64,000 nucleotides of DNA, taken from NCBI GenBank assembly GCA_951406725.2, contig OX597820.1, forward strand, positions 102,734,001-102,798,000. Direction: 5' to 3'. Origin of the DNA: Octopus vulgaris (lineage: Eukaryota). A program made the position numbers and the translations under genes. Shown one piece after another: positions 5,145 to 46,104 of this stretch. The notes beneath the pieces are model-generated. The model saw only the letters and a program-made list of their open reading frames with translations. It ran no database searches and was not told the DNA's origin. The stretch's first letter is position 1. Each line of letters opens with the position of its first letter.

Positions 5145-5872
5145 AGGCGCAGGAGTGGCCCTGAGGTAAGTAGCTTGCTAACACACATGCGCAGTTAGTC
5201 AGTTGCTTCCTGTTCAGCCAGAGTGGACGCGAGTCAACCAGCTCCGTCCAATTAAAGAAAAAAGACCAAAAACGGAAAGTTGTCGAGGTAAGTGATTTTG
5301 TTTATTGTGAGTTGGGCATAATTTATTGCGTGCCAATTATTACTTCAGTAAGTTGTGTCCAACTCTGAGACAATTTCGCCTGCTCTCGGCGGCTGCCATT
5401 TTTGTGTTCATTGAAAAAAAAAAGAAAATACAGTGGAGGGGCGTATCCTCGGAATTCAATACAGTTACTGTTAAAATTACGTTTGGCGGTAGCCAGTGCT
5501 GTGTTTGGGTTTGTTGAATTTATTCCCTTGTCAGATTACTTCGCAAGAAAATTATAAAAATAAGCCACTATTGGATTACCTTTCGGACCCATTTTTGTGG
5601 AGGTTGTGTTGCTGTTGCGGCGTTCCAGGTTCAACCCATGCCGGGAGTCCCGCAAGGCCAGAATATTTTTGCTGTGTTATTTTCTGTTTATTAACTTTCT
5701 TTTGAACTTCATTTTGTTTTTTTTCTTTATTGCGACTTTCCGTTGATTTCTTCCCTTCTGTTGTGCTTTCTCCTTTTTGTTTTTTTCAAAAATCTATCAA
5801 ATTTTATTTGGACTTTTGAACTTTTTTCTTCTTGCTTTTTGAGTTTAATTTGAATATATTTAAAAAAAAAAC

Positions 5873-7102
5873 ATGGCAATGAAAAATAACAAAATTTTAG
5901 AATGGGAAATCATACCACCTAAAAAGTGGTTAAAAGACCGTGAAGATAGGACGGTGGTGTTGAGAACCTACTCCAAGGCACTCGACACCATCGCCCTATT
6001 CGAAAAGACGGCAATTGAAAAGTTGGAAGAGTATTTGCCAACAATTAAATTCATTTCTAGGGGTGTCAAATATGCAACGGTGTGGTTGCTATTTGACACC
6101 CCTGAAGAGGCTTGCAAATTTGCTAGCAAACCCCTGGAGGGTAAGGAAATCTTATTCCTGCCCACGTACAAAAAAAGAAATTGATGAAAGCTTGGATTTG
6201 CGGACTGCCACCCGACATAGAACCCGAGTGGATAGAGGAGACTATCCGCCGGGGTCTGGGTGGCAGCGAAACTAAGCTCCTTAATGTAAAAGTTCTTCCT
6301 GCGGCTGCTTGGGTTGGGTCAAAAGCAATTTTGACCCTGTGGACCCAATCAGCCAATCTGGTTCTTCTAGATTTTTTGAAAATGGCCGGGTGCAGGTACC
6401 CGGTGATGCTTGAGGGTCGCCCCCCTATGTGTCATCGGTGCTTGGAGCCCGGCCACATAAAGAAGAACTGTCCCCGGGAACAAAATAGGATCCCGGAACA
6501 GTTAAGTAAAACCCCTCTAGAAGAGGGAATGATAACGACCGAGAAAGCAGAGGACTCCTCAAACAGAGGCCGAAAGAGGAAGGTGAGCAACAATGGGTGC
6601 TCACCAAAGGATAATAGGGATGAGGAGAGGAAGCGAATCTTCCAGCCACGGAGGAGACGCACCCTCCCTCAGTTGAAAAGGGGAAAAAAAAGAAAAAGAG
6701 GAAGAAAAAAGGGTCATTGCCGGCTGTCAGTGACATAGCACCGGAATGTCCCGGAACTACGTCGGTTGGGGTTGTGCTACCACAAGAGAAGGAATACCGT
6801 TGGCGGGAACTGTGCCGCCAACGAAAGAACTATTGGTCCTCTTCTATAGAGGAGGTGAAATTGAAAAGGTGATGGAAGAGCACCAAAAGGGAGAACTTTT
6901 AGCCTTCACACAGGACCCCGAATGGCCTCCGCAGGTAGCTGTGGAGGCCGTGGCGTTCGACGTGACGCTTGGGCTAAAGGAGCTCAATGAAGATTATAAC
7001 TTGGTCCCGGGCGACGCAAACTCGGAACTTGATTACGTTCTGAGGGAGGCGTGGTTGATGGTGGAGGGCGCGGGCACAAGCTATTTCGAGGACGATATGT
7101 AG
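5873..7102 (+). CDS. LINE ORF1/gag-like nucleic-acid-binding protein (RRM-like N-terminus, CCHC zinc knuckle), broken by two frameshifts at A-runs
   Basis: ORFs 5873-6184, 6181-6738 and 6746-7102 abut, with frame changes near A-homopolymers (~6170-6177, ~6684-6691). CHRCLEPGHIKKNC fits CX2CX4HX4C. The paralogue at 24555-24755 reads through the first break. Confidence 0.7.
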
Positions 7103-7123
7103 TTATTGAACTGTTATTATTAG

Positions 7124-7243
7124 TAATGGACTGCTAAGTCCAAAAATTGAAAAATTGTAAGAGGTTTAATACCTCGTTTTGTAATAATGGACTGCTAATT
7201 CCAAAAATTGAAAAATTGTAAGAGGTTTAATACCTCGTTTTGT
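7124..7243 (+). repeat. 61-bp-period tandem duplication in the 3' UTR of the ORF1-only element
   Basis: 7124-7182 matches 7185-7243 with one mismatch; each unit has a GAGGT-ttaat-ACCTC hairpin. Confidence 0.9.
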
Positions 7244-8194
7244 GTTTATCTTTAAAAAGAACAATGTTTTAGAGAAGCGAAAGTCGGCGGGCGCTTTTTG
7301 TCTTCTCCCATCCTTATCATCTTTCTTTCATTATCATTCACTTCATTAATGTCCTCGTCCAGCCCGCAAAGCTAACTTAATCTGTGTACTGCCTTTGTGG
7401 CAAATGTTTTGAAATAAAGTAGCTTGCTAACCAACCACATGGTTCCAGGTTCAGTCCCACTGCGTGGCAACTTGGGCAGGTGTCTTCTGCTATAGCCCCG
7501 GGCCGACCAATGCCTTGTGAGGGGATTTGGTAGACAGAAACTGAAAGAAGCCTGTCGTATATATGTATATATATGTATATGTATGTGTTCGTGTGTCTGA
7601 GTTTGTATCCCTAGCATTGCTTGACAACCGATGCTGGCGTGTTTACGTCCCCGTCACTTAGCGGTTCGGCAAAAGAGACCGATAGAATAAGTACTGGGCT
7701 TACAAAGAATAAGTCCCGGGGTCGATTTGCTCGACTAAAGGCGGTGCTCCAGCATGGCCGCAGTCAAATGACTGAAATATGTAAAAAGAGTAAAAAGAGT
7801 AAAAAGAGAGATAGATATAAATCGCGCGAATAAGATAAAAAAGCAAACGGTGCAAACAATCAAATAAAGCAAGACGTAATACGAGTGACTAAAATGATCA
7901 TTTAGGCATTATTAGAGATTACAGCGTGTTGGCAATATTGATAGGAAAAAGGCATATGATCAACAAAAGCAATAAAAATAAATCTAAAGGAAGGAATATT
8001 ATTATATATATTTTTTCTCTTTAATCAGTAAGTGATATTTTCCATTTGTTTTCATCTAAGAAATCAAAGGAAATGACTACTATTCCCTTCAAACTTTGCT
8101 CTTATCACCTGCACATCAATGTCTTGAAATTAACCCATTTTGTATAATATTTCGGACAGATTCAGCACTGAGTTACTGAAGCAGAAATAAAGCC

Positions 8195-8322
8195 AGTGCT
8201 TATTCTGTTGGTCTCTTTTGCCGAACCGCTAAAGTTACTGGGACATAAACATACTAATACCGGTTCTCAAGCGGTATTGGGAGGGGGGAAAACACAAACA
8301 CAAAGACACAAAGCATACACAT

Positions 8323-8357: not shown

Positions 8358-8416
8358 AATACCACTCACAAGGCTACGTCTGCACCTATACACACACATG
8401 TACGTATGTATGTATG

Positions 8417-8451
<35 letters not shown>

Positions 8452-8453
<2 letters not shown>

Positions 8454-9076
8454 CAATAATAAATCACTGGGCGAGATATAAACAGTAACTGCTCTATAAC
8501 ATAAGAAGGATCAGCCATCTAAATGTGGCTAGGGTCAGGGCGGGGTGGTGGGGGTGTTACTGATGCATTTAGCCCCAGGCGAACATCGACGTCACCAGAA
8601 GAGCTGACACCATCTCGGTGTCCTTGCCAGCCAGCAAAGGGAGATCAGCCTCCCCGAAGATACGGATACTACACACGGACCGGTTTCGAGGTTATTGCCT
8701 CTTGTCAACGTATGGTAAGCACCGCTCTTCGTTGAGGGACTTCCTCTGCAGGCTGGATATATATAGATTTTCACAGTAACCACAGTCACTGGCGTAGAAA
8801 ATCTGTTCGAAAACAATAATAAATCTCTGGGCGAGATATAAACAGTAACTGCTCTATAACATAAGAGGGATCAGCCATCTGAATGTGGCTAGGGTCAGGG
8901 CGGGGTGGTGGGGGTGTTACTGATGCATTTAGCCCCAGGCGAACATCGACGTCACCAGAAGAGCTGACACCATCTCGGTGTCCTTGCCAGCCAGATGTTC
9001 GCCTGGGGCTAAATGCATCAGTAACACCCCACCACCCCGCCCTGACCCTAGCCACATTCAGATGGCTGATCCCTCT

Positions 9077-9081
<5 letters not shown>
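8452..9081 (-). mobile_element. Penelope-like pLTR or retrozyme-like repeat: 360-bp unit, partial second unit and inverted arm
   Basis: 8452-8634 matches 8812-8994 (3 mismatches, period 360). 8859-8947 is the reverse complement of 8994-9081. Hammerhead on the minus strand, adjacent to a GIY-YIG remnant on the same strand. Confidence 0.8.
8672..8714 (-). ncRNA. Minimal type I hammerhead ribozyme with U3-A8 covariant core
   Basis: Minus strand CATACG-TTGACAA-GAGG-CAATAA-CCTC-GAAACCGGTC-CGTGTG: 6-bp stem I, 4-bp stem II, palindromic stem III (ACCGGT), GUC cleavage triplet. Confidence 0.8.
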
Positions 9082-9155
<74 letters not shown>

Positions 9156-9224
9156 TCGCTGTTTAATACAATGTAGAAGTGAGGGTGGATGAGTGTTTGG
9201 GGGAGACAACAGAGGGGTGAGGTT

Positions 9225-10050
9225 GTAATTATTTGTAGTTTGAGAATAGATTTAGTGCCCGATATTTGCAGGTGAATATTATGCCGATACGTTCATTGAG
9301 ACTGTCCATTGATTGCAAAATACCCATGACCTCGGCTATACATAGATCACACTTATAATATATCCGCTGTAAGGTTTGGCGTGGGTGATTATGGACCGTT
9401 TAATAGTGTAAGGGTTTGAATCAAGCGTCAGTTTACCGTTAAGTTGAGATAACGATGTACTGTTAGATTTTGTTGGGGATTTGAAGCTAGAATAGTGATT
9501 GTTCACTCTAGCTTTGAAGGTGGTGCTACGTGAGCCGATGTAAATGTAGTTACAGTTGTTAGTTAGTTGGTACTGCGCACATATAAACTATATTTTTAGT
9601 GAGACAGCGATTATCTAGAGGACTGGAGGTTGGGCGTCTGCAGCTGCATAGGTTTGTAGGGTGTGTTCCGGATGAGCCTAAGAGGGAATTGTTATTTAGT
9701 GAGGAATCGGTGTTCGGTTCGTTATTATAGTTAGTGCTAAGGCTATCATTTGATAAGGAGTTGACGATGGTGTTGTTGTGTTGTGTGCTATGATAACTAC
9801 TGTGTCCAGTGTTTTCCTCTGGGATGTTCTTTATTAAGACAGGAGGTATATTTGGGCGTTATGGTACAGTTAAGGGTCGGGTGTTAACAATGGCACTATA
9901 GTTGTAGTTATAAGGGTCAGTTTTGTTAAGGGGTCCGTTTGTGCATTGAATTTACATGTATGGAGTTGGGGTTTATGTTGAATTAATTTACTAGGGTGGG
10001 GGTAGGACGTTGTTGGATTTCGGAATTTCTTGTTAAGATTTATGTTTGTG
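9225..10050 (-). pseudogene. Penelope-like element C-terminal remnant (GIY-YIG endonuclease)
   Basis: Minus-strand frames give CSCRR..PLDNRCLTKNIVY, YIYIGSRSTTFKARVNNHYSSF and CDLCIAE...LNER...CKY, typical PLE GIY-YIG motifs with frameshifts. The upstream boundary is uncertain. Confidence 0.8.
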
Positions 10051-28189: not shown

Positions 28190-29488
28190 TGTTGAGACAG
28201 AAATAATTGTAATGAATCATTAAAGATGTGTTGAAGGATTTCTTTGCCTTATTATTTGGATTATATACGTACATATATACGAATGTGTATATTATATAAC
28301 TACATAAAATATTTAGGAATACTACACTCCGAGAAAGACAATGGGATGTCATTTGTGGGACGTCTGGTATCAAATATATTCCAGGTAAGCATGTTATCCA
28401 TTACACAAAAAGGTCACACCATATTGTTCCATCCAGTACAGACTCTAATGTATCACCACAAATCAAATTAGCAGTACATATAATTTCGAAGCTACTTAAA
28501 TATCAATGAATAAACAATCAAGGTGTGTGTGGTGGGGGTCTATTCATTTTCAGCGTCAGCGAAAGGCCTCTTAAGATTTATATATGAAATCTTAGAAATT
28601 AATCTATAACTTTCAATGGATCTATAAACATGTACTCACACACCTTTGTAGTAAGTAATAATTTAAGATATAAATCTTTAACAACGCTAGCCACATACAT
28701 ACAAGATCTCAAGTTGACCAATACACAATATTCTTTATACTGGCCCATCATGGCAGAGGCCCGTCCCTATAGTACAATCACACGAGTATCTAGACTTTGC
28801 ATTAAGGAGTCAAAAGATATTTTCTGTAGTTATAATTTTTTCATTACTGAATAATTTCACTGATGCCATACCTTTTAACTTTTAGGTATTTTAATCAAAC
28901 CAGATAGCTGCACCGTTATACTCTACGATTGACAGTATTCCACATAACATTTATATTCAAACTTTATTAGCCTCCTCTTGGTGTAATTTATTCATTCCCT
29001 TAAAACCCACCATACTTTCAATTTTAACTTCCCATAATTCCTTCTACACTATTCCCTCCTCTTGCTCATAGGCATAACTATATATAAAACTTAGAACTAC
29101 AGTAAGTTTTCTAATACTAAGCGAAATGTGACCCCTTCTAACACTTCCCGATGATGTTGACAGTTATCAAAAATTTTGGATACGAACATTTATTATTTAC
29201 AAGGATTACTGTTCCCGAGAAATGGCCATAGGAGAAATTATTTGATATTTACCTTGAAAAAACAATGTTTAATCTATGAATTACATACACTGGACGTTTT
29301 ATTACATTATACACTTTACCCTGGACACCTTATAATATATTTTTAACACCGTTTGTTAACTTAACGTTTATTAGTAAGTAGGACAATACCTTTTCAAATG
29401 TTTATATATATGTCTCATATATTTTTATAGATTTGCATAATTTGTCGAACATAAGTATATTATATTTTTAATATTTCTGGTATGTCTA

Positions 29489-45356: not shown

Positions 45357-46104
45357 TATTTCTTTACTATCCACAAGGGGCTAAATACAGAGAGGAAAAA
45401 CAAGGACAGACAAACCGATTAAGACGATTATATCGACACCAGTGCGTAACTGCTACTTATTTAGTCGACCCCGAAAGGATGAAAGGCAAAGGCAAAGTCG
45501 AACTGGGCAGAATTTGAACTCAGAACGTAACGACAGACGAAATACCTATTTCTTTACTACCCACAAAGGGCTAAGCATTTCGCCCGGCGTGCAAACGTTT
45601 CTGCCAGCTCGCCGCCTTTTAAAGGATGAGAAGGCAAAGTCGACCTCGGCAGAATTTGAACTCAGAACGTAAAGACGAACGAAATGCCTATTTCTTTACT
45701 ACCCACAAGGGGCTAAACACAGGGAGGACAAACAAGGACAGACAAACGGATTAAGTCGATTACATCGACCCCAGTGCGTAACTGCTACTTATTTAATCGA
45801 CCCCGAAAGGATGAAAGGCAAAGTTGACCTCGGCGGAATTTGAACTCAGAACGTAACGCCAGACGAAATTCCTATTTCTTTACTACCCACAAGGGACTAA
45901 ACACAGCGAGGACAAACAAAGGTATACAAACGGATTAAGTCGATTACATCGACCCCAGTGTGTAACTGGTACTTAATTTATCGACCCCGAAAGGATGAAA
46001 GGCAAAGTCGACTTGGGCGGAATTTAAACTCATAACGTAACAGCAGACGAAATACGGCTACGCATTTTGCCCGGCGTGCTAACGTATCTGCCAGCTCGCC
46101 GACT
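45357..46104 (-). mobile_element. Head-to-tail multimer of SINE family B (about 4 units)
   Basis: Unit boundaries at ~45357, 45546, 45688 and 45872. A 21-bp TSD with one mismatch lies at 45336-45356 and 46106-46126. Confidence 0.9.

Follow-up and report, generated by a model that had tools for sequence, protein, structure and literature searches.

An ORF-less 360-bp repeat unit with a predicted hammerhead motif and the layout of a Penelope-type insertion in Octopus vulgaris

Layout of the locus and its neighborhood

The window, by which we mean the whole 64-kb stretch of DNA that was analyzed, is animal-like and AT-rich and contains many microsatellites. At 8452-9081, a 630-base insertion sits between two (TA)n runs (Table 1), and its layout and flanks can be read directly. 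A preliminary description of this DNA had noted a 360-bp period with the second unit cut short, and this was borne out: 8452-8634 matches 8812-8994 over 183 nt with three differences, at 8466, 8507, and 8521 (blastn E 2e-88); the other offsets from 355 to 365 gave background matches only. The hairpin with an 89-bp arm and a 46-nt loop that had been described is also present, its arms (8859-8947, 89 nt, and 8994-9081, 88 nt) being exact reverse complements except for one base missing from a G/C run, with the loop at 8948-8993. The inverted copy is joined head to head to the second unit over a 1-nt microhomology (8994), and it carries the second unit's G at both of the differing places that it covers (8507 and 8521). 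Both pieces point inwards from the TA flanks; read on the minus strand, the order is inverted 5'-truncated copy, 5'-truncated unit, full unit, and (TA)n.

Table 1. Features of the insertion and of its immediate surroundings, in window coordinates
Feature	Position	Strand	Basis
Left flank, (TATG)n/(TA)n microsatellite, likely insertion target	8405..8451	.	Sequence
One full 360-bp non-coding unit, 49% GC, 3' end at 8452	8452..8811	-	Period, hammerhead strand, head-to-tail joint
47-nt extension of the direct end, absent from the inverted copy, whose last place is equivalent to 8499	8452..8498	-	Arm comparison
Minimal type I hammerhead motif	8672..8714	-	Relaxed descriptor scan and cofold
Second unit, 5'-truncated, 183 nt, without hammerhead	8812..8994	-	blastn
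Inverted copy of 88 nt, truncated at its 5' end, covering unit places 8587 to 8499	8994..9081	+	Reverse-complement match
Right flank, (TA)n microsatellite	9082..9152	.	Sequence
Frameshifted end of a probable Hydra-type PLE, with the linker and the GIY-YIG endonuclease	9156..9800	-	Protein relatives, hallmarks by eye

No ORF with an RT and a GIY-YIG domain lies between the terminal repeats: tblastn of 60 PLE proteins gave no match in 8452-9081, and the unit's longest open frame had no protein relative among 67 candidates in a word-indexed search, which is a weak one. The GC content of the unit is 48.9%. Neither sequence comparison nor a 19-nt pattern revealed a further unit copy in the 64-kb window, and a 26-nt unit pattern had 0 matches in a metagenome scan. 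At the end of the unit (8452-8517, minus strand), 22 open codons directly follow a pyrimidine-rich stretch and an AG, and these codons start with ATG in the second unit and in the common allele. This terminal frame may be what remains of an ORF start or a splice acceptor in the parent PLE; with its acceptor-like AG, it fits an ordinary pLTR equally, and published pLTRs can include the first codons of an ORF (PMC11167929, PMC3846280). We also considered an intron ending just before this frame, and the corresponding skip joint was absent from those listed for the four sequencing runs that we aligned.

The neighbor to the right is a frameshifted remnant whose stop codon, at 9229-9231, is separated from the (TA)n by ~73 nt of 3' sequence. 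An exhaustive protein search with the piece 9339-9569 yielded 60 relatives at E up to 0.001, which align in frameshifted pieces over about 9220-9800; a word-indexed protein search with the neighbor's endonuclease piece gave no match. The relatives carry a CxCX5C linker without an internal cysteine pair, and one of them (P0026) has an RT upstream, below Pfam cut-offs. The hallmarks described for the Hydra clade are a C-terminal GIY-YIG domain, a CxCX5C linker, no CCHH, and CxxC and CxH around E and N (PMC8557442). After comparison with these hallmarks, which were matched by eye and not on a tree, we dropped a by-eye reading of the neighbor as a Neptune element; the third Cys and the His of the remnant are decayed in the window. 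The remnant is probably a separate and older insertion than the unit, and two insertions at one TA run are the simplest reading.

Several other features of the window were recorded. A second decayed GIY-YIG remnant of the neighbor's type (46 tblastn alignments) lies on the plus strand at 28603-28824, with no 360-bp unit beside it. A frameshifted gag-like frame at 5190-7243 contains a CCHC zinc knuckle (Pfam zf-CCHC E 0.003, below cut-off), with no polymerase seen; its end consists of a pair of direct repeats of 61 bp (7121-7242) that contain small hairpins. At 45621-46053, a 184-bp unit is present in 2.3 tandem copies that are 89% alike. Left of the element, the stretch 7420-7780 is, by its look, what we take to be a SINE-like repeat, and 8200-8280 appears by eye to be an inverted partial copy of part of it.

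The hammerhead motif and its predicted folds

The preliminary description had assumed a hammerhead ribozyme, and a predicted motif is indeed present, once, on the minus strand at 8714-8672. In a scan of the 64-kb window with a relaxed descriptor, it was the only one of three matches to have a 6-bp stem I. Its other parts are U3 at 8708, A8 at 8703, a stem II of 4 bp with a 6-nt loop, and a palindromic helix III; cleavage is predicted between 8678 and 8677, and a long rod is predicted to continue stem I. U3-A8 covariation and a dimer-type helix III have been described for PLE hammerheads (PMC4209133). Nothing in the window reached the gathering score of an Rfam model, and the 26 weak Rfam matches in 8400-9400 (E up to 10), which included no hammerhead model, were set aside as hairpin-type chance matches. 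Because the hammerhead lies on the minus strand, we took the minus strand to be the sense strand of the unit.

When two of the 43-nt motifs were cofolded, the dimeric hammerhead was the minimum-energy form (-26.5 vs. 2 x -10.8 kcal/mol), and closure of helix III in the monomer was predicted to be unfavorable; the hammerhead is predicted to fold only as a dimer. A predicted circular fold of the unit had z = -3.0 against 60 shuffles for the sense strand, with 58% of the bases paired, and z = -1.9 for the plus strand. The four short motif pairs to which attention had been drawn (acacc/ggtgt, ccttg/caaagg, ggag/ctcc, and gaagagc/gctcttc) all occur in the unit. As hairpins they fared differently, since the three local pairs form in the predicted folds but gaagagc/gctcttc (8598, 8724) does so in the plus-strand fold only and not in that of the minus strand.

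It had further been proposed that a self-cleaving monomer of ~360 nt could circularize; the copy at 8452-9081 alone would yield neither such a monomer nor the circular RNA. The second unit ends at the equivalent of 8634, before the ribozyme at 8672-8714, so the locus has one ribozyme and one cleavage site and does not contain two consecutive hammerhead-complete units. With one cleavage site, a doubly cleaved monomer is impossible from this copy, which would be a dead end for monomer production.

The unit family in sequencing runs

Part of the unit was present in 20 of the 24 sequencing runs listed, across four organisms and eight studies; none of these 20 runs is recorded as RNA, and 14 are only guessed to be RNA. 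We aligned the contigs of four runs to 8452-8811, with filtering, and obtained 835, 375, 10, and 20 aligned contigs. The runs may stem from other individuals or species; X15 (76% covered) and X17 (98% covered) are DNA-like, X1 is a probable (guessed) RNA run, and X7 is the fourth run. A head-to-tail joint, leading from the unit end at 8806-8811 back to 8452, was seen directly in all four runs, with a depth of 454 in X17, in which the final bin adds up to 1118. Judged from these contigs, which cannot give array length, the 360-bp unit represents a family of repeats that also form head-to-tail joints in other individuals or species.

Loose ends before 8454 were mixed (13 contigs with an agreement of 0.56 and 12 contigs with 0.58) and mostly AT-rich, which would fit dispersed 3' ends. 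Loose ends also lay behind 8492 in all four runs, and several sister families have the last 41 nt (about 8452-8492) in common. In X15, the summed depth, which gives no copy number, was ~510,000-690,000 over 8548-8583 vs. 7,000-33,000 over 8620-8811; such an excess near the 3' end is as would be expected from 5' truncation together with sister families that have a common 3' end. Contigs running past the unit ends numbered 66 in X15 and 37 in X17. Two further contigs, the cyclic 343-nt sister unit of X1 and a 390-nt contig of X7, have only parts of 8513-8600 in common with the unit. The joints listed for the four runs include no strand change, a result that is uninformative on the inversion, the runs being partly covered, filtered, and possibly from other individuals or species. 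Nor did the listing contain a site at which the ends of many molecules pile up, a feature that contigs do not reveal.

The contigs also bear on the claim that the inverted arm carries diagnostic bases of the second unit. G was found at 8507 and 8521 in 30,973 of 30,973 and 61,714 of 61,714 depth units in X15, and in 2,812 of 2,819 and 6,843 of 6,843 in X17. Unit 1 carries private changes, and G at 8507 and 8521 is the common state of the family. The arm does have these bases, as the second unit has, but since they are common to the family, its derivation from the second unit does not follow from them.

Within 8678-8708 (31 nt), the listed family differences are confined to loop II and to positions 3, 7, and 8 of the core, with C3 and G8 alleles present. 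Given the 32 differing places listed in 360 nt, the expectation for the remaining 22 places of the core stretch would be about 2 variable ones, in a difference table that is incomplete (one contig has 12 differences, 5 of them assignable to positions). The confined variation may be taken as weak support for selection on the motif.

In X1, two contigs had overlapping first and last 30 letters, one of 390 nt corresponding to the 360-nt unit and one of 373 nt corresponding to the 343-nt sister unit, and both close without coding sequence. Any tandem, a 1.5-mer included, collapses to a cycle in a 31-mer graph, and cyclic contigs are therefore not specific to circular RNA. The 390-nt contig has the window's rarer bases at 8633 and 8748. 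When 37 of its letters across the joint were compared by eye with 8812-8848, which contains 18 As, we observed 10 A>G changes and one A>T change, with all 19 other bases in agreement, and neither of the two As preceded by G in that stretch was changed. The same contig has A>G at 8523 and 8531, where the X15 counts are 47 of 58,261 and 0 of 177,897. ADAR hyper-editing targets repeats and avoids an upstream G (PMC5625713), and the plus-strand A>G cluster, observed in one contig of depth 4.7, is likely the product of ADAR hyper-editing on antisense RNA.

In X7, the stretch 8598-8777 is covered by contigs that match the window copy exactly, and one of them, of depth 8.9 (8634-8707), spans the predicted cleavage site. 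Two X7 contigs end exactly at 8678, and we rejected these as cleavage ends because they lie 30 nt from the variants 8708 and 8747, as the two sides of one graph bubble, and because another contig crosses the site. From these runs, we consider the unit to be probably transcribed.

Origin of the insertion and comparison with known systems

Published PLE insertions combine a partial tandem with an inverted copy that is 5'-truncated and lies at the 5' end, with a one-ended tail of 30-40 bp, and with microsatellite targets (PMC8557442, PMC3846280, PMC8969392), and head-to-head inverted copies are common among them (PMC8557442, PMC3846280). The copy at 8452-9081 displays 5' truncation with a partial tandem pseudo-LTR, a head-to-head inverted 5' copy, and a (TA)n target, within which a target-site duplication is unreadable. 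The 3' ends of the direct and inverted pieces differ by 47 nt, a value from one copy that exceeds the 30-40 bp of PLE tails (PMC8557442, PMC11167929), and the extension at 8452-8498 is likely the counterpart of such a tail. On the sense strand, the two outer junctions resemble each other: each falls at UGU(U) followed by AU, with 47 nt between them, where the motif at the 8452 end uses the base found in the X17 and X7 head-to-tail joint, from which the window base differs. Because layout, flanks, and junction likeness match those of PLE insertions, we infer PLE-type integration at 8452-9081.

We put at roughly 70% the probability that the locus is a copy of a dispersed, ORF-less, hammerhead-bearing 360-bp unit, likely a non-autonomous derivative of a PLE terminal repeat and likely inserted into (TA)n by a PLE RT-endonuclease acting in trans. 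The retrozyme-like and pLTR labels of the preliminary description thus pointed in the right direction for an ORF-less hammerhead repeat with head-to-tail joints and PLE anatomy, and the two are not alternatives (10.64898/2026.07.22.740005). As to the enzyme and the priming, we infer that the RT-endonuclease would have nicked both strands of the (TA)n target, after which each 3' end would have primed cDNA synthesis on a minus-strand RNA longer than one unit, either a tandem transcript or a circle. Synthesis would have begun at two internal start sites 47 nt apart, both UGU(U) then AU, to give one cDNA of 543 nt (1.5 units) and another of 88 nt, the two being fused in head-to-head orientation at a single shared nucleotide. 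A purified PLE protein cuts and extends both strands of AT-rich DNA, and it starts at two internal RNA sites whose distance equals the tail (PMC11167929). Head-to-head inversions have also been explained by self-priming on an antisense template (PMC3846280); we prefer two-ended priming because the joint has no palindrome and only 1 shared base. The ribozyme would presumably act as a dimer in true arrays elsewhere.

A stronger version of this reading, which we consider doubtful, is that of an active retrozyme family: arrays elsewhere would make a 360-nt circular RNA via the dimer-only U3-A8 hammerhead, the 1.5-mer would have been copied by running round the circle, this copy would keep a complete Penelope-type integration signature, and the antisense transcripts would be hyper-edited. 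The size, GC content, and type I hammerhead of the unit fit non-LTR retrozymes (PMC7229834), shuffled sequences fold less stably as circles than the sense strand does, and X1 contains cyclic contigs of both the 360- and the 343-nt units. However, cyclic contigs arise from any tandem in a 31-mer graph, the plus-strand A>G changes of the 360-nt contig point to antisense read-through RNA rather than to a circle of the ribozyme strand, and the X7 contig of depth 8.9 crosses the predicted cleavage site. The minimal PLE-type motif, moreover, is reported to be weakly active (PMC4209133), and one of nine predicted Xenopus dimers cleaved in vitro (10.64898/2026.07.22.740005). Units 1 and 2 also differ at three places, which they would not after a single pass round a circle unless changed later. 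Less probable again, and in our view unlikely, is that the insertion is the 3' end of a 5'-truncated autonomous PLE of the Neptune or Penelope/Poseidon type, with its terminal repeat duplicated and no separate non-autonomous family. Most PLE hammerheads are single motifs of truncated copies (PMC4209133), and the palindrome in helix III is like those of PLEs; the unit end could hold an ORF start, and ORF-linked contigs could be among those running past the unit ends. Yet the unit closes on itself in all four runs, with high depth in X17, as does its 343-nt sister, and no ORF-like common continuation appears among the loose ends listed, beyond which there are 84 more.

Two readings that concern parts of the locus have much less in their favor. 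The inverted arm might have arisen by DNA fold-back and repair after insertion, or as an assembly artefact, and the 1-nt microhomology at the joint and the equality of the arm with the second unit in sequence would suit this. We regard it as very improbable: the end of the arm resembles the junction of the other end and abuts (TA)n directly, and head-to-head inverted copies are, as noted, common in PLE insertions. The arm is not a plain read fold-back, because one deletion sets it apart from the second unit. Least credible of all, to the point that we give it hardly any weight, is that the unit served the adjacent Hydra-type remnant as its pLTR, in which case the (TA)n at 9082-9152 would be internal to a single element. 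The preliminary description had suggested that the unit could use the machinery of Penelope elements such as the adjacent one. The remnant is on the same strand, with the unit's side of the locus 73 nt after its stop codon, and Hydra elements target (TA)n and carry hammerheads near the 3' end (PMC8557442). Against this, it is the inverted copy that adjoins the remnant, the wrong orientation for a 3' pLTR, and the many frameshifts of the remnant contrast with a likeness of 98-99% between the unit copies. The similarity between unit and remnant was not above that of shuffles (in the best case, one of eight comparisons, 6 of 200 shuffles reached the score). Hydra-type hammerheads have a 3-4-bp non-palindromic helix III, and none of the 26 Hydra rows of File S2 has the helix III of the unit (PMC8557442). 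The adjacent element is not supported as a partner, being a decayed remnant that does not resemble the unit.

PLE ends with hammerheads and units of the retrozyme type are widespread and already described, and a single locus changes no model. The copy at 8452-9081 is an example of an ORF-less ribozyme unit with a PLE insertion signature, and as such it bears on how retrozymes move, since their mobilization by PLE enzymes is called hypothetical (PMC7229834, 10.64898/2026.07.22.740005). If the active-retrozyme reading were true, the locus would be direct genomic evidence for this proposed, unproven PLE-driven mobilization. In the cephalopod literature, with Repbase and Dfam outside the search, we found no hammerhead/PLE unit family of this kind, and no described retrozyme was found in the literature for the unit's host group; 235 hammerhead matches have been counted in a squid genome (PMC6962438).

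Non-LTR retrozymes consist of 150-450-bp tandem units with type I hammerheads that are expressed as circles, with PLEs as the proposed mobilizer (PMC7229834); a preprint derives them from PLE pLTRs, an active element having two complete ribozymes in tandem and solo units being termed monomers (10.64898/2026.07.22.740005). The unit resembles those of animals, for example the 350-390-bp mussel units, in being non-coding, 360 bp long, below 50% GC, and furnished with a type I hammerhead (PMC7229834), and also in its head-to-tail joints, its dispersed monomer-type copies, and the PLE mobilization proposed for it. It differs in that the copy at 8452-9081 has one ribozyme, a "monomer" and not "active" in the terms of 10.64898/2026.07.22.740005; that its predicted motif is a minimal U3-A8 form whose helix III is predicted to be unable to close as a monomer; and that the copy has an inverted 5' copy and a tail, neither of which is described for retrozymes in the available parts of PMC7229834 and 10.64898/2026.07.22.740005.

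With EN+ PLE insertions, the copy has in common the head-to-head inverted truncated copy, the partial tandem, and the (TA)n (PMC8557442; for Pen2a_Av and trans-mobilized cargo, PMC3846280), as well as a predicted hammerhead on the sense strand of its terminal repeat and a one-ended extension that is likely tail-like (PMC8557442). In contrast to them, no RT-endonuclease ORF lies between its repeats, and its extension is 47 nt rather than 30-40. MRC1 of Chlamydomonas, a non-autonomous PLE derivative, is similarly ORF-less, with pLTRs and head-to-tail insertions (PMC8557442), whereas the unit has an animal host and a predicted hammerhead, and no partner element was found for it. The minimal hammerheads of Schistosoma Cercyon show the same U3-A8 covariation, palindromic helix III, and predicted dimer (PMC4209133), but the unit's stem II is 4 bp long without an extra base after A9, and its stem I is predicted to run into the rod. 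Likeness to the Hydra clade, as matched by eye, lies in the neighbor, with its linker, lack of an internal CCHH pair, CxxC motif, and (TA)n target (PMC8557442); the hammerhead and sequence of the unit are unlike Hydra 3' ends, and five short unit motifs are absent from the Hydra and Naiad terminal repeats in the available part of the PMC8557442 supplement. Taken against these systems, the copy at 8452-9081 works like a PLE-mobilized retrozyme-type monomer, with one ribozyme where an active retrozyme has two and without the ORF of an autonomous PLE.
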